From an uncultured Alphaproteobacteria bacterium (GTDB lineage Bacteria > Pseudomonadota > Alphaproteobacteria > HIMB59 > GCA-002718135), in assembly GCA_902621855.1 (NCBI GenBank), contig CACNNQ010000002.1:239984-303983 (forward strand): a stretch of 64,000 nt of DNA. The letters are read 5' to 3'. The notes beneath the pieces are model-generated. The model saw only the letters and a list, made by a program, of their open reading frames with translations. It had not been told where the DNA came from and did no database searches. The translations under genes were made by a program, and so were the position numbers. Of the stretch, positions 7,044 through 45,878 are shown piece by piece (position 1 is the first letter of the stretch; every line of letters starts with the position of its first letter).

Positions 7044-8171
7044 TTAGATAACTTTTGAGGCAAGTTTAGTACCCTCAACTAATGCATGAAGCTTTTCATA
7101 ACAAATTTTTTCATCAATTTTTCCAAAACCAGCAAATGTACTAAAACCACAATCTGTCCCTGCCATTAATTGATCTTTTGGAATGACTGTAGAAAACTGA
7201 ATTAATCTATCTGCAACAACTTCCGGATGTTCTACAAAATTAGAAGTTGAGTCGATTACACCAGGTACTAGGACTTTATCTTTTGGTAACTTTATATCTT
7301 GAAAAACTTTCCATTCATGTGCGTGCCTAGGATTAGAAGATTCAATGAGAAAGTATTTTATCTTTGATTTCAAAATGATAGGTAATATTTTCTCTAGAGC
7401 AATATCGTGTGTGTGGGGTCCTTCATAATTACCCCAACATATATGCATTCTAGTTTGTTCAACATCTACATTAGATAATGCTGAGTTTAAGCATTCAATT
7501 TGTAGCTCTGCACGTTTAATAAACTCATCTTCAGATAAATTTTTAAAATTCATATGTCTTGCTAAAGCAAGGTCTGGGCAATCTAATTGGACTTGAATAT
7601 CTGATTTTGTTATTAGCTCATATTCTTTAGCCATAATATTAGATAATTTATCCAAATATTCATCTTCGGTACTATAAAATTTATTTGGCATAAAAACATT
7701 TATCACGCCAGGTGATGCTGAGTTCATAAATGCATTTCGGTGATTTAATTTATCAAGTGAATTTTTAAAATTATTTATATCTTGTTGAAGAGATGTTTCA
7801 TCTTTTACTTTTAATTCGTTTGTACAACATGGTCTGGTATAAGTTGGTGTGCCACCACTTTTAGCAATCTTTTCTTTGTATTCTGGAAAATCATCAAGAT
7901 CAGCAGGTGCTCTTCTTTCGCTTTCACCTGAGAACCCATCAATTCTGTCTTTAATATATGTAGCGTAGCTAATTTTACTCATCTCTCCATCACTGACAAA
8001 ATCAATTCCAACATCAAGTTGTTTCTTAACAATGCTTTGCACGTTATTTTTTAATACTTCATCAAAACTATTTTGACTAAATTTCTCTCCTTTATCTTTT
8101 GCAAATAAGAATTCTGAAAGTTCTTTTGATCTAGGAAGGCTTCCAACATGTGTTGTCAAAATATTAGACAT
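7044..8171 (-). CDS. Cobalamin-independent methionine synthase (MetE) catalytic-domain family protein, stand-alone
   Basis: 375 aa. N-terminal THVGSLPR and putative Zn-ligand motifs HICWGNYEG and GTDCGFS. Only one barrel is present (about half the length of full MetE). Confidence 0.75.
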   Translation of the reverse strand: MSNILTTHVGSLPRSKELSEFLFAKDKGEKFSQNSFDEVLKNNVQSIVKKQLDVGIDFVSDGEMSKISYATYIKDRIDGFSGESERRAPADLDDFPEYKEKIAKSGGTPTYTRPCCTNELKVKDETSLQQDINNFKNSLDKLNHRNAFMNSASPGVINVFMPNKFYSTEDEYLDKLSNIMAKEYELITKSDIQVQLDCPDLALARHMNFKNLSEDEFIKRAELQIECLNSALSNVDVEQTRMHICWGNYEGPHTHDIALEKILPIILKSKIKYFLIESSNPRHAHEWKVFQDIKLPKDKVLVPGVIDSTSNFVEHPEVVADRLIQFSTVIPKDQLMAGTDCGFSTFAGFGKIDEKICYEKLHALVEGTKLASKVI

Positions 8172-38436: not shown

Positions 38437-38883
38437 ATGAGAATTGCTCTATTTGAACCCGACATACCACAGAATGCAGGAAACATATTTAGATTAGGTG
38501 CCTGTCTTGGAATACCAATAGATATAATAGAGCCAGCTGGCTTTGTGATTGATGATAAAAGATTAAAAAGAGCATCAATGGATTATTATGATTATCTAGA
38601 ATTAAAAAAACATTTGAGCTGGGAAAAATTTTATGAGTGGTCAAAAGATAATTCATATCGACTTGTTCTTCTAACGACAAAAAGTAAAAAAAATTATTTC
38701 GATTATAAATTTCAATCAAATGATATTATTTTATTTGGCAGAGAAAGTGCAGGAGCACCTGATTTTGTTCATAGCTCTGTCGATGAAAGATTGACAATAC
38801 CAATGGTAAAAGGGCCTAGATCGATTAATCTTAGTAGTTCAGTTGCTATTGTAGCTGGTGAAATGTTACGCCAATTAGCTTAA
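38437..38883 (+). CDS. trmL: tRNA (cytidine/uridine-2'-O-)-methyltransferase, SpoU/TrmL family
   Basis: 148 aa. EPDIPQNAGNIFRLGA, ...LFGRESAGAP and SLNLSSSVAIV. Confidence 0.8.
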   Translation: MRIALFEPDIPQNAGNIFRLGACLGIPIDIIEPAGFVIDDKRLKRASMDYYDYLELKKHLSWEKFYEWSKDNSYRLVLLTTKSKKNYFDYKFQSNDIILFGRESAGAPDFVHSSVDERLTIPMVKGPRSINLSSSVAIVAGEMLRQLA

Positions 38884-39737
38884 GCTAAGCTTCCCATCTT
38901 TCCTTCTTGATAGTCCATCATTGCTTGCTTGATTTCACCTTCAGAATTAGCCACAAAAGGACCATAACGTGCAACAGGTTCTTTAAGTGGCTTACCTGCT
39001 AAAACTAGGTAGGATCCTTTTTCTGATATTGATGTAAGTTGAATCTCATCACTTGACTGATCAAAGTAAATCATATCACCTTTATTAGCGATTTTATCTT
39101 CCTCATTAAATTGTAATTGACCATCGATAATATAGATCATAAGATTTTGTTCTTTATCAACATTAAACTTTGTCATATCTGGTTTTGAAAATTGAATATC
39201 AAATATTGATACAGGTGAATATGTTTGAACTTTGGATTTGGTTCCATTTATTTCTCCCACAAGAACTTTAATTTCTATATTTGCATTTTCAGATACTGTT
39301 GGAATAGTGTTTCTTTTAATATGTTGGTACCAAGGTTTAACTTTTTTATTTTTTTTTGGAAGGTTAACCCAGATTTGTAAACCTTGCATGATACCACCAC
39401 TCTTCTTAAATTTTTCTGTTACTAACTCAGAATGGATTAAACCTGACCCAGTTGTCATCCATTGTACATCACCAGTTTCAATTTCTGCTTGTCCGCCAAA
39501 TGAGTCTCTATGCTCTACTTCACCACCAAGCATATAAGTAATTGCCTCAAATCCACAATGAGGATGTGCTGGTACACCAGTTGCACCTCCCGGTTCATAA
39601 TTAATTGGGCCGAAATGATCAAAAAGAAGAAATGGATCATTTTCTCTCATTCCGGGGACAGGGAAAGCTCTCGTTACAGGTATCCCGTCACCCTCGAAAG
39701 TCTTCATACACTCTTTAATTTCTAATGCTTTTCTCAT
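38880..39737 (-). CDS. Pirin family protein
   Basis: 285 aa with the pirin metal motif HPHCGFEAITYMLGGEVEHRDSFG. Confidence 0.9.
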   Translation of the reverse strand: MRKALEIKECMKTFEGDGIPVTRAFPVPGMRENDPFLLFDHFGPINYEPGGATGVPAHPHCGFEAITYMLGGEVEHRDSFGGQAEIETGDVQWMTTGSGLIHSELVTEKFKKSGGIMQGLQIWVNLPKKNKKVKPWYQHIKRNTIPTVSENANIEIKVLVGEINGTKSKVQTYSPVSIFDIQFSKPDMTKFNVDKEQNLMIYIIDGQLQFNEEDKIANKGDMIYFDQSSDEIQLTSISEKGSYLVLAGKPLKEPVARYGPFVANSEGEIKQAMMDYQEGKMGSLA

Positions 39738-39776
39738 TTGTATTTTAAATTATATAAAAAATATATAGGTATGATT

Positions 39777-39860
39777 ATGAAAAATCAAAATCCAAACCCA
39801 CCAAAGTGTGGTTGCAGCTGCAGCTGTTGTTGCACTTGTGAAGGTGGAGATTGCTGTTAA
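39777..39860 (+). CDS. Unannotated cysteine-rich mini-protein (metallothionein-like), 27 aa (29 aa if started at 39771)
   Basis: MKNQNPNPPKCGCSCSCCCTCEGGDCC has 9 Cys, no aromatic residues and no His. AGG lies 7 nt upstream of the ATG at 39777. It ends in a TAA TAA double stop. The segment is clearly more GC-rich than its flanks. It is below the ORF-track length cutoff. Confidence 0.5.
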   Translation: MKNQNPNPPKCGCSCSCCCTCEGGDCC

Positions 39861-39927
39861 TAATACATTCTAAATTAAACAAAATTCAGAAATAAATAAT
39901 TATAATTTAATTTTTTTTAAAATTTTA

Positions 39928-40335
39928 CTATTTTAAATTAATAATAATATCTGACTTACTATTTATTGGAGGAAATCTACCAACGATATTAGATCTATAT
40001 ATTTCAGGTCTATGTCTACGTCTCAAAAAACCATCATCAGATTTGCTATAGGATAATAGCAGTTCCTCTATTGAATCAATATAAGCAGAATTTTCAGGAT
40101 CTATATCTCCAAACACATAGGTAAAACAATTTTCTGCGGTAAAGGATACAATACATGAACGTTTACAATTACTCATGCAATTTACACCTCTTAAAGTTAC
40201 ATTTTTTGTATTTTTAAATTTATCAATTAATTTTTGTGCAAGTTTTTCTCCTGCAAGTTTATTATTATTTTGAGCTTTATTAAGGGTACATGTGAGACAA
40301 ACAGATAATATTATTTCTTTTTGTTTTTTTGACAT
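39928..40335 (-). CDS. DUF1636-like predicted metal-binding (thioredoxin-like ferredoxin fold) protein
   Basis: 135 aa. Cys motifs SVCLTCT and CMSNCKRSCIVSF, then YVFGDIDP and RPEIYRSNIVGRFPP, as in DUF1636 proteins found beside cobW-type genes. Confidence 0.55.
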   Translation of the reverse strand: MSKKQKEIILSVCLTCTLNKAQNNNKLAGEKLAQKLIDKFKNTKNVTLRGVNCMSNCKRSCIVSFTAENCFTYVFGDIDPENSAYIDSIEELLLSYSKSDDGFLRRRHRPEIYRSNIVGRFPPINSKSDIIINLK

Positions 40336-40356: not shown

Positions 40357-40611
40357 CTAATGGGTGTGGTTTGTTAGATTATTAATATCTGACTCCTCTA
40401 TTTCTTCTATTGATTTTGCAACTCGCCAATTTTTCATTGATCCGTCTTCATTTCTTGCAGTAATTACAGTTTCGATTGGTGGACAATCAGGCTCATGACA
40501 ACTGAGCTCAGCAATACTTATTATAGTATTTTCTGGTAATTTATATTTCTTGGAAATTAAATGTTTAAGATTTCTTATTTTTTCAACATTTTGAGTTTTA
40601 CGATTAAACAT
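40357..40611 (-). CDS. Small hypothetical protein with a CHEPDCPP motif
   Basis: 84 aa. A single Cys pair (SCHEPDCPPIETV) and a C-terminus ending HTH. Tightly packed between the WD40 and DUF1636 genes. Confidence 0.5.
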   Translation of the reverse strand: MFNRKTQNVEKIRNLKHLISKKYKLPENTIISIAELSCHEPDCPPIETVITARNEDGSMKNWRVAKSIEEIEESDINNLTNHTH

Positions 40612-40621
40612 ATTTTCTCCT

Positions 40622-41659
40622 TTAATTGTCTGCCCATAAAGATGATAAAAGAATAGAACCTTTCATATCCCCAATTAATATTTGTGAATTATCACTAGAT
40701 ATCGCTATTGTTGAAACTTCCGAACCTGTTGAACTTCTAATCATAATTGGTTTTTTACTTTCATCAATTTCTGCTAATAAAACTGACCCATCTGTAAAAC
40801 CGGTGAAAACAGCTTTTTCTCCATTAAGTGCTTTAACAAATGTTGCAAGTTCTTTACCACCGTTTGCAACAACAATTGGCTTTCTCCCCATTGGTCCTTC
40901 TTTGCCATCAAATGGCCAGCAAACTGCATCACTTGATCCAGATGTTACCAAATATGGTGTATCACCAACCCAAGTAAAACTTTTAATTTTTGATGGGTAA
41001 CCTCTCATTGCTAAATCAGCTTTGTCGTTTAAGCGCCAACCATGAATTTGATTTTCTTGCATCGCTGTAACAATATATTTTGTATCTGGGCTAAACGTTA
41101 CAGTTCCATGCGATCCTTTCCATGTAAAATTTGATGATGTCCATTTATTATTATTTAGTTTCCATAATGTTACTCCACCGTATCTTGAGACCGCAAGGCG
41201 CTTACCTTTATTATCAAATGCTAATCCAGCAACAGTGCTTTGATGCTCTAAAGTTAGTGGTTTATCTTTGTTTTTTGTCCAAATATAAACATTTTTACCT
41301 GATGAACAAACTTTAGTATCTTTGTGGGAAGCTACACAGTCAACCCACTTTGAACCAAAATTAAAAATTTCATCAATATTTCCATCAGATGATATTTTTA
41401 AAAAACGTCCATCTTCTCCTCCCGTTAACACATGATCTTCATAATTTGTCATACTCAACACTACACCCTTATGTGCTTTAACAGTTTTAGGATCAGATCC
41501 AGATTGAAAAAATCTTACAGTACCGTCTCCAAATCCTACAGCTATTTGATCACGAATTGTAACCGCTTCTGTAGCTGGGGCTCCAATATTAAAAATTGAA
41601 CCTCTTCTTTCAAGTTCAGTTTTATTTGATTCTTGAAGTGTTTCTAAATCAGCGTTCAT
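40622..41659 (-). CDS. WD40/beta-propeller repeat protein, no signal peptide seen
   Basis: 345 aa with repeated units such as HKGVVLSMTNYEDHVLTGGEDGRFLKI and STVAGLAFDNKGKRLAVSRYGGVTLW. Overlaps the GTPase gene by 4 nt. Confidence 0.75.
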   Translation of the reverse strand: MNADLETLQESNKTELERRGSIFNIGAPATEAVTIRDQIAVGFGDGTVRFFQSGSDPKTVKAHKGVVLSMTNYEDHVLTGGEDGRFLKISSDGNIDEIFNFGSKWVDCVASHKDTKVCSSGKNVYIWTKNKDKPLTLEHQSTVAGLAFDNKGKRLAVSRYGGVTLWKLNNNKWTSSNFTWKGSHGTVTFSPDTKYIVTAMQENQIHGWRLNDKADLAMRGYPSKIKSFTWVGDTPYLVTSGSSDAVCWPFDGKEGPMGRKPIVVANGGKELATFVKALNGEKAVFTGFTDGSVLLAEIDESKKPIMIRSSTGSEVSTIAISSDNSQILIGDMKGSILLSSLWADN

Positions 41660-42627
41660 GCTGATTTACAATTATCAAAGCCTTCCTTAAGATTCATATT
41701 ATCAAGATCACGACCAATAAATACTACTCGAGAACTTCTATCTTTTCCTTTAGGCCAAGGTCCCATTGGTGAAGCATCCATGAGCATGTGTACTCCTTGA
41801 AATACATATCGCTCTTCTTCACCTTTAAAGTTCAAAATTCCTTTTGATCGAAGTATGTCCTGACCCTTTGTCCTGAGTAAATTTCCAAACCAATCTTGGA
41901 ACTTATCCATATCTAATGGTGTATCAGATACAAAGGATAGACTAGTAACATCATCATCATGTTCATGATCATGATCTGATTCAAGAAAGTCAGGTTCAAT
42001 ATCTAATACTCTATCTAGACTAAATGCATTTAAGCCTACGATTTCATCAAGAGGTGCATCACAACGTGTTGTTTTAATAATCTTAGCAAAAGGATTAATT
42101 TTTCTAATACGATCATTAACTTTTACAATGTCATTATCTCCAACAAGTTCAACTTTATTTAACAAAATTACATCAGCAAAAGCAATTTGTTCTTCTGCTT
42201 CATGATGATCGACTAATTGAGAACTTAGATGAACAGCATCGGCAACTGTAACAATTGCATCTAATTTTGTACGATCAGCAACATCTTGATCAACAAAGAA
42301 GGTTTGTGCTACTGGTGCTGGATCTGCTAAACCAGTTGTCTCAACAATAATTGCATCAAGCTTATCAGCACGTTTCATTAAGCCACTTAGAATTCTAATT
42401 AAATCACCTCTAACAGTGCAACAAATGCACCCGTTGTTCATTTCAAATACTTCTTCATCAGCATCAACAACAAGATCATTGTCGATACCTTGTTCACCAA
42501 ATTCATTAACTATGACAGCATATTTCCGTCCATGCTGTTCAGTTAATATTCGATTTAAAAGAGTTGTTTTTCCAGCTCCAAGAAACCCTGTTAAAACAGT
42601 AACTGGAACCTGAGAAGTATTTTCCAT
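41656..42627 (-). CDS. COG0523 / CobW-family G3E GTPase (putative zinc metallochaperone)
   Basis: 323 aa. Walker A GFLGAGKTTL, metal motif GCICCT and a His/Asp stretch ESDHDHEHDDD. Confidence 0.9.
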   Translation of the reverse strand: MENTSQVPVTVLTGFLGAGKTTLLNRILTEQHGRKYAVIVNEFGEQGIDNDLVVDADEEVFEMNNGCICCTVRGDLIRILSGLMKRADKLDAIIVETTGLADPAPVAQTFFVDQDVADRTKLDAIVTVADAVHLSSQLVDHHEAEEQIAFADVILLNKVELVGDNDIVKVNDRIRKINPFAKIIKTTRCDAPLDEIVGLNAFSLDRVLDIEPDFLESDHDHEHDDDVTSLSFVSDTPLDMDKFQDWFGNLLRTKGQDILRSKGILNFKGEEERYVFQGVHMLMDASPMGPWPKGKDRSSRVVFIGRDLDNMNLKEGFDNCKSA

Positions 42628-42698: not shown

Positions 42699-43826
42699 TT
42701 AACAGCCTTTAAGCTCGTCCCCGAGATTACTTATCAACGTAAAGTAAAGTGACTTACTAGCATCAATGTTAGCACCTAAAGGATCAAAAACTCCTGTTTT
42801 GATATTCATGTCCTCAGCTATTGTTGTAATAATCTTTGGATTAAATTGAGGTTCAGAGAAAATACATTTTATTCCCTTATCCTTAATAACATCCTGAATA
42901 TCAGCTATTTGCTTTGCACCAGGTAAAACATCAGTATTCAATGTTAAAGCTCCTGCAGCTCTTACACCAAATCTTTCTTCAAAGTATTGGTAGGCGTCAT
43001 GGAACACAACAAATTTTGCATCAGAATTAATATCTGTACCAACATCACTAATAAGCTGATCTAAAGCTTTAATTGTTGCTTCAGAATTTGCTTCATATTT
43101 CTCTTTATTGGCAGGATCTAAATCACCTAACTCATGAGCTATTTCATGAACCATTTTTTTAGCATTCATTGGATCTAGCCAAATGTGAGCATCAAATTCA
43201 CCGTGTGCATGGCCGTGATCGTCATGGTCATCATGATCATCGTGATCGTCGTGGTCATCATGATCATCGTGATCGTCATGATCGTCATGATCATCGTGGT
43301 CGTCGTGGTCATCATGGTCATCATGATCATCGTGATCATCATGGTCATCATGATCATCGTGGTCGTCATGATCATCGTGGTCGTCATGATCGTCGTGATC
43401 ATCATGGTCATCGTGATCATCATGGTCATCGTGATCATCATGGTCGCCAAAAATTGATTCTTCTCTAAATTTTAATTTAGCAATTGAATCAAGTTCCATA
43501 AATTCAATAACTTCTGCATCTTTTGCAATTGAGTCTAGAGGTTCTTCCATTGATGTTTCAATACCCTCTCCAATCCAAAAAATAACATCTGCTTCCTCAA
43601 GCATTTTCGCATGAGAAGGTTTCATTGTAAAACTATGTGGTGAAATACCTCCATCAATTATAAGTCCAGGTTCACCTACTCCATCCATAACATTGGATAT
43701 CAATGAATGTAGTGGTTTAATTGTGGTAACAACTTTTAGCTCTGCTCTAGCAGATGCAGTTGCAGCAAGAATTCCCGAAAATAACATAATCTTAAATATA
43801 TGTAGAAAAAAATTCGTTTGTTTCAT
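42699..43826 (-). CDS. znuA: Periplasmic zinc-binding protein of an ABC importer, with a giant His/Asp-rich insert
   Basis: 375 aa with a signal peptide. Cluster-9 binding-protein core (SPHSFTMKPS, DAHIWLDP, FHDAYQYF). Divergent from znuCB-zur. Confidence 0.85.
   Translation of the reverse strand: MKQTNFFLHIFKIMLFSGILAATASARAELKVVTTIKPLHSLISNVMDGVGEPGLIIDGGISPHSFTMKPSHAKMLEEADVIFWIGEGIETSMEEPLDSIAKDAEVIEFMELDSIAKLKFREESIFGDHDDHDDHDDHDDHDDHDDHDDHDDHDDHDDHDDHDDHDDHDDHDDHDDHDDHDDHDDHDDHDDHDDHDDHDDHDDHGHAHGEFDAHIWLDPMNAKKMVHEIAHELGDLDPANKEKYEANSEATIKALDQLISDVGTDINSDAKFVVFHDAYQYFEERFGVRAAGALTLNTDVLPGAKQIADIQDVIKDKGIKCIFSEPQFNPKIITTIAEDMNIKTGVFDPLGANIDASKSLYFTLISNLGDELKGC
43215..43445 (-). repeat. 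In-frame coding repeat encoding D-(HDD)x25-H inside znuA
   Basis: 231 nt of CAY-GAY-GAY codons with mixed synonymous usage. 18-nt units (CAT GAT GAT CAC GAT GAC) are visible at the 5' end. This is the most GC-rich patch in the neighbourhood. Confidence 0.95.
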
Positions 43827-43863: not shown

Positions 43864-43881
43864 GTAATGTTATAATATTAC
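43864..43881. promoter_or_regulatory. Zur-box-like palindrome in the znuA / znuC divergent promoter
   Basis: GTAATGTTA-TAATATTAC has 8 of 9 positions palindromic. It lies 22 nt upstream of the znuC ATG and 38 nt upstream of the znuA ATG. Confidence 0.55.
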
Positions 43882-43903: not shown

Positions 43904-44647
43904 ATGAGTAGTAAAAATAATTTATTAGTAAATTTGGAAAACGCAGGTGTTTATAAGTCTCCAAAATGGCTGATAAGAGGTGTATCTCTTGAAGTAAAGA
44001 GTGGTCAAATAGTTACGCTAATAGGGCCTAATGGTTCTGGGAAGACAACAACAGCTAAAATGGTGCTAAGTATTCTCGAACCAGATGAAGGTTCAATGAA
44101 AAGGTATACAGATAAAATCGCATATGTTCCTCAAAAAATTAATATCGATTGGACAATGCCATTACGTGTTGTAGATTTCATGCGATTAACCAATTACCTC
44201 AGTGATAATGAAGTTATTGAATCCTTAAATCAAACTGGTGTAGAAAACCTTTTCAATGAACAAATTCATGGTCTATCAGGTGGAGAATTTCAACGTGTTC
44301 TTCTAGCAAGAGCTATTGCAAAAAAACCAGAATTATTAGTCTTAGATGAACCTGTTCAAGGAGTTGATTTTAATGGGGAAATTGATCTTTATAATATTAT
44401 TAAAAATATTTCTACAAACCTAAATTGTGGAATTTTATTAGTCTCCCATGACTTGCATTTTGTTATGTCTGCTACAGATCATGTAGTCTGTTTAAATGGA
44501 CATATCTGTTGTTCAGGAAAACCAAGTGCAATTATAAAAGATAAAGCCTATATAGAATTATTTGGTGAACATAGATCAAAAACATTGACATATTATCAGC
44601 ACGATCATGATCACACACATAATTCTGACGGAAGTGTGTCTAATTAA
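43904..44647 (+). CDS. znuC: Zinc ABC transporter ATP-binding protein
   Basis: 247 aa. Walker A GPNGSGKTT, signature LSGGEFQRV, and a His-rich tail HDHDHTH. Confidence 0.85.
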   Translation: MSSKNNLLVNLENAGVYKSPKWLIRGVSLEVKSGQIVTLIGPNGSGKTTTAKMVLSILEPDEGSMKRYTDKIAYVPQKINIDWTMPLRVVDFMRLTNYLSDNEVIESLNQTGVENLFNEQIHGLSGGEFQRVLLARAIAKKPELLVLDEPVQGVDFNGEIDLYNIIKNISTNLNCGILLVSHDLHFVMSATDHVVCLNGHICCSGKPSAIIKDKAYIELFGEHRSKTLTYYQHDHDHTHNSDGSVSN

Positions 44648-45450
44648 TGTTTGATGATTTTTTTACTAGAGCATTAGTTACTGGTATTGGTATTGCTATA
44701 ATAACAGGACCGTTAGGTTGCTTAGTAATTTGGAGACGATTATCTTATTTTGGTGATACCTTAGCACACTCTGCCTTATTAGGAGTAACTTTAGCCTATG
44801 CCTTTAGTTTAAATATTGCCTTTTCCGTGTTTGTAATATCTGCGGTCATTGCTCTACTTCTTCTCAACCTTCAAAAAAGGACTAGATTAGCCGGGGACTC
44901 ATTACTTGGATTATTAGCTCACTCTACTCTTGCGATTGGTTTGGTTTTAATTGGTTTTTTATCGAGTATTCGTTTTGATATTATGGGATTACTATTTGGG
45001 GATATTTTATCAGTAACTGTAGAAGACATCGCTCTAGTATGGATTGGTGGTTTTATAATTTTGGTAATTTTATATTTTATTTGGAAATCATTATTTTCAG
45101 CAACAGTTAATTTTGACCTTGCTTTCGCAGAGGGGATGCAACCTAACGTATATAATATGATTTTTACCCTTCTACTTGCTGGAGTTATTGCATTATCTAT
45201 AAAAATGATTGGTACTCTTTTAATTACAGGATTACTAATAATACCGGCAGCGGCATCGAGAAATATCACTAACAATCCAAAACAAATGGTATTTGTAGCT
45301 ATATTAATTGGCATTTTATCTGTTACAATTGGTTTATTTACTTCTTTAGAATTAAACACCTCTTCAGGGCCATCAATTATTGTTATAGCGATAATATTAT
45401 TTATTATTTCACTTATACCACTAGAGTTAAGAGGTAAGTTGCAAAAATGA
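44647..45450 (+). CDS. znuB: Zinc ABC transporter permease
   Basis: 267 aa, multi-TM, ABC-3 family-like. Overlaps the znuC stop. Confidence 0.85.
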   Translation: MFDDFFTRALVTGIGIAIITGPLGCLVIWRRLSYFGDTLAHSALLGVTLAYAFSLNIAFSVFVISAVIALLLLNLQKRTRLAGDSLLGLLAHSTLAIGLVLIGFLSSIRFDIMGLLFGDILSVTVEDIALVWIGGFIILVILYFIWKSLFSATVNFDLAFAEGMQPNVYNMIFTLLLAGVIALSIKMIGTLLITGLLIIPAAASRNITNNPKQMVFVAILIGILSVTIGLFTSLELNTSSGPSIIVIAIILFIISLIPLELRGKLQK

Positions 45451-45464
45451 AAACAATTTGGTAA

Positions 45465-45878
45465 TTGAGTTTTATGGCATTAGCATCAGAAAATTTAACC
45501 AAAAACCAGCAAACAGTTCTCAACGTCCTAGAAAACTCATCTGAGCCCATGAAGGCATATACGATTCTTTATGATATACAAAAAAAGGGAATAAAATCTC
45601 CTCTTCAAGTTTACAGAGCTCTCGATAAATTAATAGAAATTGGAAAAGTACACAAAATAGAAAGCAGAAATTCATATGTTGCTTGTAAGCATGAAGGCTG
45701 TAATGCAAAAACTTCTACATCTTTTTTGATATGTGAAAATTGTGATAGTGTTACTGAGTTAATCGGAAATAATTTGTTTTCTTATTTTTCAAAACAAGCA
45801 GAAAAGAATAACTTTAATTATAAAAAACATAATTTAGAAATAATTGGTCTGTGCGAAAATTGTAAATTAAAAAACTAA
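45465..45878 (+). CDS. zur: Fur family zinc uptake regulator
   Basis: About 135 aa. Winged helix plus CxxC pairs (CENCDSV and CENCK). The ATG at 45474 is the more likely start than the TTG at 45465. Confidence 0.75.
   Translation: MSFMALASENLTKNQQTVLNVLENSSEPMKAYTILYDIQKKGIKSPLQVYRALDKLIEIGKVHKIESRNSYVACKHEGCNAKTSTSFLICENCDSVTELIGNNLFSYFSKQAEKNNFNYKKHNLEIIGLCENCKLKN

Follow-up and report, generated by a model that had tools for sequence, protein, structure and literature searches.

A selected, unannotated gene for a 27-residue cysteine-rich peptide in the SAR11 zinc-uptake locus: a tentative new metallothionein family

We analyzed a 64,000-nucleotide stretch of DNA from an uncultured alphaproteobacterium (contig CACNNQ010000002.1, positions 239,984 to 303,983; hereafter the window) and found an 84-nucleotide gene for a peptide of 27 residues, nine of them cysteines, lying between a pirin gene and the 3′ end of the zinc-uptake operon headed by znuA. 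The gene is very probably translated, and the pattern of its variation among relatives indicates that purifying selection acts on it at the protein level. From its composition, we favor with modest confidence the reading that the product is a metal-thiolate, metallothionein-like peptide. The wider proposal, that this is a previously unseen family of 27-residue metallothioneins in the SAR11 zinc-uptake locus, opposed to the znuA operon through convergent transcription without a dedicated sensor, is offered only tentatively.

An earlier note, made from the letters of the window, had pointed to an unannotated cysteine-rich open reading frame (ORF) of 27 to 29 codons in the 190-bp pirin-DUF1636 spacer, with nine cysteines, no aromatic residue or histidine, a double stop, and a guanine-plus-cytosine (GC) content above that of its AT-rich flanks. 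Apart from the upper length, our analysis agrees. The DNA at 39771-39863 (ATGATTATGAAAAAT...TGCTGTTAATAA) translates as MIMKNQNPNPPKCGCSCSCCCTCEGGDCC followed by two stops, and the gap that holds the ORF spans 39738-39927. The ORF core has 43% GC versus 8-23% in the flanks; the whole window has 29.5% GC and is at least 93% coding. In relatives, the first ATG (39771) is replaced by ATA, ATC, ATT, GTG, GAA or AAG, and we therefore place the start at the second ATG (39777), which leaves a peptide of 27 residues and does not support the 29-codon version. Two longer versions, of 29 residues from the first ATG and of 40 residues from a TTG, were rejected because their extensions lack conservation. 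The peptide is built in two parts, a polar, proline-rich head (MKNQNPNPPK) and a 17-residue tail (CGCSCSCCCTCEGG[D/G]CC) that contains all nine cysteines in the arrangement CxCxCxCCCxC...CC. Cysteine thus makes up 33% of the peptide (9 of 27 residues) versus 0.98% across the long ORFs of the window, and the cysteine density of the ORF is the highest among the 1750 six-frame stop-to-stop segments of the window. The DNA pattern of the cysteine core occurs once in the window, against 0 occurrences expected from shuffles. Annotation left the gene uncalled in every assembly examined, and we suspect that its length falls below the limits of gene callers.

The evidence for protein coding comes in the first place from 80 genomes that were retrieved via the neighboring pirin gene, without selection on the peptide, and are thus unbiased with respect to it. 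The ORF is present in 59 of 59 loci that have a pirin at least 91% identical and the upstream DNA on the contig. Two more close loci are interrupted by contig ends, and loci with a pirin of 86% identity or less have different neighbors and no such ORF at that site. Every one of the 30 nucleotide haplotypes in this genome set has 27 codons counted from the second ATG. The variable sites at codon positions 1, 2 and 3 number 6, 4 and 19, and the changes are 20 synonymous versus 13 non-synonymous over 13.3 and 67.7 sites, respectively, a ratio of about 0.13. In a permutation that preserved the base-change types and placed them at random, 20 synonymous changes were reached in 0.03% of trials (P = 0.0003). 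The earlier note had proposed synonymous versus non-synonymous variation and conservation of the frame in relatives as its check, and both speak for a gene. Pairwise diversity stands at 0.135 for third positions, 0.014 for positions 1 and 2, and 0.187 for the adjacent spacer; third positions therefore drift nearly freely beneath a maintained amino-acid sequence. TGT and TGC alternate in eight of the nine cysteine codons, and the sole cysteine replacement is one Cys-to-Phe singleton.

Scanning metagenomes with a degenerate nucleotide pattern that encodes CGC[S]C[S]CCCxCE added at least about 60 true copies, on marine contigs of 28-38% GC, the other matches being junk. In total, we recovered at least 121 copies: 59 from single-cell or metagenome-assembled genomes, about 60 from metagenome contigs, and that of the window. 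Full-length copies account for 116 of the 121 and comprise 58 haplotypes, with a proportion of synonymous differences (pS) of 0.45 and a ratio of non-synonymous to synonymous differences (pN/pS) of 0.07. The length of 27 codons and the positions of start and stop are fixed across the recovered copies, disrupted ones aside; the start codon is nearly always ATG, with a few copies using GTG or TTG and a single one ATA. Aromatic residues were seen among the 121 copies only as a Tyr singleton and a Phe singleton. Within the metagenome subset, residues 11-22 were imposed by the search pattern, so that conservation there is partly circular and weakens this part of the case. The head MKN[Q/E/K]NPN[P/S]PK and the tail G[G/E][G/D]CC lie outside the search pattern and are conserved with synonymous variation, including C26 and C27.

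The other five frames were rejected as coding, being closed or scoring worse. These included an antisense ORF at 39775-39882, which starts with TTG in non-conserved DNA and has 5 synonymous versus 28 non-synonymous changes, and an antisense frame of comparable ratio, which runs for 23 codons from stop to stop and lacks a credible start. Three individual copies deviate from the family. A 1-nucleotide deletion in L051 swaps the terminal CC for a 22-residue extension, L290 has a TAA at codon 4, and L053 combines Cys11Phe with Glu22Lys. These three may be pseudogenes or single-cell sequencing errors.

What the peptide does is suggested by its composition. Metallothioneins are recognized by a size below about 10 kDa, by cysteines in CxC, CC or CxxC motifs, and by few or no aromatic residues and histidines. 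Here, we find 27 residues, nine cysteines that are arranged in such motifs and conserved with synonymous codon variation, and 0 aromatic residues and 0 histidines in the window sequence, in line with the metallothionein hallmarks listed in the earlier note. The definition further asks for the binding of several metal ions in metal-thiolate clusters, which we predict here, and for a tie to metal homeostasis by expression or genomic association, for which we observe a constant place beside the znuA operon but no Zur box of the gene's own. The peptide is predicted to be cytoplasmic and is without a signal sequence. We propose that it would be a minimal metallothionein in which the nine thiolates wrap a small metal-thiolate cluster, with a stoichiometry, by known metallothionein chemistry, of about three Zn(II)/Cd(II) or four to six Cu(I), and that it would buffer or bank metal. 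On the basis of its locus, zinc may be the physiological metal, to which we give somewhat less than even chances; copper or cadmium are possible.

Several known metallothioneins provide points of comparison. The fungal family-8 Cu-metallothioneins of Neurospora crassa and Agaricus bisporus have 25-26 residues with 7 Cys, and each forms a single small thiolate cluster; the Neurospora protein, of 25 residues, binds four to six Cu(I). The likeness to short fungal Cu-metallothioneins drawn in the earlier note holds for composition: the peptide is of similar size, is CxC-rich in Cys, Ser and Gly with CGCS and GCSCS strings, and has no His or aromatic residue. It does not extend to homology, as there is no Pfam match and no significant similarity (BLASTP E = 0.12). 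The peptide also differs in having 9 Cys, including CCC and a terminal CC, in its Pro-rich head, and in being bacterial and in a zinc locus rather than a copper one. The beta-domain of vertebrate metallothionein has about 30 residues and 9 Cys forming an M(II)3Cys9 cluster. The equal number of cysteines and similar length make a three-metal stoichiometry plausible; the cysteines are, however, spaced in quite another way, the two are not homologous, and the vertebrate domain belongs to a protein of two domains.

Among bacterial proteins, MymT is a mycobacterial Cu(I) metallothionein of 53 residues that is copper-induced and not known to be linked to a zinc locus. Like the peptide, it is a small, lineage-restricted, Cys-rich bacterial product, and it was long missed by annotation; it is, however, twice as long, and the two are not known to be related in sequence (we found no NCBIfam match). 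BmtA has about 55 residues and a zinc-finger-like fold with Cys plus His ligands, whereas the peptide is half the size of SmtA/BmtA, has no His and does not match the PF02069 model. In the oligotrophic marine Synechococcus WH8102, which offers the closest functional parallel, Zur represses znuABC and activates a metallothionein for zinc banking, and the bmtA promoter carries Zur boxes (PMC9337993). The peptide resembles this Zur-activated bmtA in being Cys-rich, in belonging to an oligotrophic marine bacterium and in a comparable, here proposed, zinc-banking logic. It differs from bmtA in that its gene has no Zur box and lies physically inside the znu locus.

The gene was further sought in databases and in the literature. 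The exact 27-mer and 29-mer are missing from a collection of 15 billion proteins; the protein search used the 40-residue extended ORF as query and returned only eight mis-called longer ORFs, some on contigs with another upstream gene. Viral contigs searched with a loose Cys-core DNA pattern gave off-frame and low-complexity junk and no phage copy, and a tblastn search of annotated phages and plasmids with the peptide likewise found nothing, although the low-complexity filter may have masked the query. The motif CGCSCSCCC was found in no paper of the literature searched, which also contained no link between SAR11 and metallothioneins.

Coordinates of the peptide gene and its neighbors within the window (strand as + or -; a dot marks features without strand)
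Feature	Position	Strand	Remarks
Pirin (bicupin)	38880..39737	-	Pfam Pirin and Pirin_C; divergent left neighbor
Divergent spacer, pirin ATG to peptide ATG, 39 nt	39738..39776	.	TTGTAT (39738-43), 18-nt gap, TATATA (39762-67), AGG (39767-69)
In-frame ATG-ATT upstream of peptide gene	39771..39776	+	Outside conserved gene
Peptide gene	39777..39860	+	27 codons plus TAA; product MKNQNPNPPKCGCSCSCCCTCEGGDCC
Second in-frame stop TAA	39861..39863	+	Double TAA only in window type; other types have single TAG or TAA
DUF1636 gene	39928..40335	-	Pfam PF07845; last gene of znuA operon in window; 67-nt gap to peptide gene, convergent
p84, 84 residues, CHEPDCPP motif	40357..40611	-	Operon member, conserved there
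WD40 beta-propeller protein	40622..41659	-	In znuA operon
COG0523 (CobW/ZigA-like) GTPase	41656..42627	-	Pfam cobW and CobW_C; NCBIfam ZigA and YjiA-like models below cut-offs
ZnuA	42699..43826	-	Pfam ZnuA; first gene of operon
Zur box GTAATGTTATAATATTAC	43864..43881	.	znuA/znuC divergent promoter region; sole one in window
znuC, znuB, zur	43904..45878	+	Pfam ABC_tran, ABC-3, FUR

The neighbors in the window include those named in the earlier note. Pirin is divergent from the peptide gene, DUF1636, p84, WD40, COG0523 and ZnuA are convergent with it, and znuC, znuB and zur lie beyond. Comparison across the 121 loci, window included, shows which of these are constant. The left neighbor is always divergent; 74 loci have pirin there and 20 have MurJ. 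In 116 of 116 loci where it is on the contig, the downstream gene is convergent and is the last gene of the znuA operon, and this operon comes in three versions. In 54 loci it consists of znuA alone, and ZnuA faces the peptide across a gap of 37-42 nucleotides in all but two; in 42 loci it reads znuA-COG0523-WD40-p84, and p84 faces the peptide (gap of 23 nucleotides in 37 of them); in 18 loci DUF1636 is added, as in the window, and faces the peptide (gap of 60-67 nucleotides). In 3 further loci, WD40 is the nearest large downstream ORF. Only the zinc operon stays next to the peptide gene through both left contexts and all three operon versions, which bears out the link to the zinc locus drawn in the earlier note. 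The peptide gene is also independent of COG0523, WD40, p84 and DUF1636, because it persists where they are absent. Pirin was dropped as a conserved partner, since MurJ replaces it elsewhere and the downstream differences between relatives reflect the variable 3′ end of one and the same znuA operon.

This arrangement bears on the idea that the ORF is a Cys-codon-rich leader peptide that senses the charging of Cys-tRNA and attenuates a downstream gene. The his, phe and trp leader peptides have comparable codon runs, and nine Cys codons in seventeen are similar to these. However, with the next gene convergent in every locus where one is on the contig, nothing downstream on the same strand is there to control, and the orientation therefore refutes the role, which the earlier note had called unlikely on this ground. 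Additionally, many variants carry their own terminator directly after the ORF, and selection also acts on the non-Cys residues. We give a leader peptide next to no weight.

It is very unlikely that the peptide is instead the precursor of a ribosomally synthesized and post-translationally modified peptide (RiPP), either lanthipeptide-like or a thioamide/oxazolone copper-binding product, with its modifying enzymes elsewhere in the genome. Ser/Thr are interleaved with Cys in the core, and marine picocyanobacteria have small Cys-rich precursors whose modifying enzymes are encoded far away. However, the earlier note's statement that no RiPP maturase is nearby holds for about 11 kb on each side and for the alternative contexts, in which we found no radical-SAM, LanB/C/M, YcaO or DUF692 enzyme, leader peptidase or exporter. 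The genes of these flanks include cytochrome bc1, SpoU, pirin, the zinc genes, a CCA-adding enzyme, PanC, RnpA and YidC; the rest are comparable housekeeping genes. At ten residues, the head falls short of a typical leader, and the high coding density marks a highly streamlined genome, which also speaks against a RiPP.

The more serious alternative, which we nevertheless consider unlikely, is a translated micro-protein whose thiols do not store metal. It could be a redox or electrophile buffer, a reserve of reduced sulfur (cysteine), a cofactor scaffold, or the partner or regulator of a zinc-locus protein on which the NPNPPK head docks. The N-terminal ten residues are as conserved as the Cys core and are not obviously needed by a metal sponge, pirin, from which the window gene diverges and whose promoter region overlaps that of the gene, is a redox-linked bicupin, and the gene has no Zur box. 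However, pirin is not constant, and COG0523, WD40, p84 and DUF1636 are missing from 54 carrier loci, which leaves only ZnuABC and Zur as candidates for a constant partner. Moreover, a stretch of 17 residues with nine Cys and neither His nor an aromatic residue is the classical metal-thiolate signature.

The signals around the gene were examined for how it might be expressed. The hexamers TTGTAT and TATATA, spaced by 18 nucleotides, form a putative peptide promoter in the window; they are weak, and a promoter scan did not flag them. Hexamers resembling -35 and -10 elements occur 6-13 nucleotides ahead of the ATG in all upstream types (TTGAAA-16-TAATAA in the MurJ types), and their placement suggests that the transcript leader is very short or absent. 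The sequence upstream of the ATG is entirely different between the left-hand contexts. The AGG that the earlier note had seen 7 nucleotides before the second ATG is there in the window (39767-69); it is kept only in relatives with pirin upstream and does not serve as a family-wide Shine-Dalgarno argument. On the minus strand, a promoter-like site for pirin (TTGATT-17-TATATT, 39788->39760) overlaps peptide codons 1-4. Since the start codons are 39 nucleotides apart, the pirin and peptide promoters must each overlap the 5′ end of the other gene.

In variants with Gly at residue 25, a strong hairpin at the 3′ end (-24.1 kcal/mol, z -4.4; -16.6 kcal/mol, z -2.6) takes its 5′ arm from codons 23-25 (GGT GGA GGG), and a T-run comes after it on the peptide strand. 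The Asp-25 variant of the window has no such hairpin (z +1.0) and no terminator-like hairpin between the converging genes, so that the D/G polymorphism is linked in part to RNA structure. The Gly-25 hairpin lacks a T-run on the znuA strand, and transcripts of the znuA operon may read into the peptide gene as antisense. Together, the flanking orientations, the hexamers and the Gly-25 hairpin suggest that the peptide gene is its own transcription unit. In L325 at about 7050-7110, and at the equivalent place in L327, a perfect bidirectional terminator, TTCCACC-TTTTAAAAAA-GGTGGAA, stands between znuA and murJ with no peptide gene. Carriers retain TTCCACCTTTTT at the 3′ end of the gene (L293/L311), paired with GGTGGA inside peptide codons 23-24, which suggests that an event of gene gain or loss rebuilt the terminator.

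These overlaps also bear on whether the conserved DNA could be an untranslated cis element or a small RNA, such as a pirin promoter or operator or a terminator or spacer for the znuA operon, in which the open frame is incidental. The 5′ end of the ORF necessarily overlaps the pirin promoter, and the Gly-25 terminator arm lies within the codons of the ORF. However, the variation has a three-base periodicity in which third positions vary about as freely as the spacer, a pattern that a DNA or RNA element would not be expected to show, and start, stop and length are fixed even in contexts without pirin. The palindrome of the window haplotype, GCAGCTGCAGCTGC, is broken in other haplotypes, and the window type lacks any hairpin. 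Rfam gave no family at the gathering threshold in the whole window and chance-level matches only around the ORF. A purely untranslated element is thus highly improbable.

The Zur box between znuA and znuC is found in every related locus that includes that region. The peptide gene, however, has no Zur box in its own promoter region by which it could be counted in the Zur regulon: no Zur-box-like site (up to 4 mismatches in 18) occurs between -400 and +300 relative to the gene at any of the 121 loci. Because the gene has no Zur box of its own, the window has no hairpin between the converging genes, and the Gly-25 T-run is on the peptide strand alone, convergent transcription is the likeliest coupling. 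In zinc-starved cells, Zur would free the znuA operon, and read-through would cover the peptide gene with antisense RNA or make polymerases collide there; in zinc-sufficient cells, the znuA operon would be silent and the peptide made. We regard it as doubtful, if worth stating, that this antisense coupling operates.

Several observations weigh against a zinc-storing metallothionein at this locus. The missing Zur box is one of them. Another is the peptide's lack of any match in Pfam, NCBIfam or PDB even at E<=10, so that there is no homology to metallothioneins; the BLASTP value, from a single-pair comparison with the Neurospora crassa Cu-metallothionein, reflects a compositional match. The CCC and CC runs are unusually dense for tetrahedral Zn(II) sites, and Cu(I) or a non-metal thiol role is possible. 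The gene is dispensable, being disrupted in 2 of the 121 copies (L051 and L290), and L325 and L327, with the same znuA and murJ neighbors, have no Cys-rich ORF; a MarineAlpha5 genome and another relative also lack the gene. Finally, because the relatives are fairly close, znuA could have stayed next to the gene in all of them through inherited synteny, without any functional coupling.

The surrounding locus shows some variation of its own. COG0523 subfamily 5 genes are known to cluster with WD40 genes and znuABC (PMC2770081). The content of the znuA operon differs among close Pelagibacteraceae relatives, in the three versions seen over loci L001-L322. p84, of 84-93 residues in the group and with a conserved CHEPDCPP motif, has no Pfam or NCBIfam match, always follows WD40 in the znuA operon and is a member of a Zur-linked operon. 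The ZnuA proteins of the group have very long Asp/His repeat loops, with a (DH)n of ~90 residues in L250, and the highly variable loop length dominates the identity values between relatives. In the more distant L059 and L060, what lies divergent from pirin is not the peptide gene but one for a small iron-sulfur domain protein of the CDGSH type. Cluster mates of the window's cytochrome b and pirin at 90% identity or more are named Pelagibacteraceae by NCBI, and the exact cytochrome b sequence occurs on about 1000 contigs; we therefore take the lineage to be SAR11, and abundant.

SAR11-type bacteria are the most abundant heterotrophs of the ocean, and free zinc, copper and cadmium are at picomolar concentrations in surface seawater. 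To our knowledge, almost nothing has been reported on how SAR11 handles these metals. An 84-nucleotide gene under strong selection was missed by annotation in the assemblies examined. If our reading is true, it would represent a new sequence family of metallothionein-like peptides, the shortest bacterial candidate, and a new genomic and regulatory layout for metal storage, in which cells bank zinc (or trap Cu/Cd) while uptake is off. The presence/absence polymorphism between close relatives would be a natural experiment that can be related to ocean metal fields, and a dedicated thiolate peptide in the zinc locus of so abundant a lineage would offer a molecular handle on the trace-metal quotas of ocean heterotrophs.

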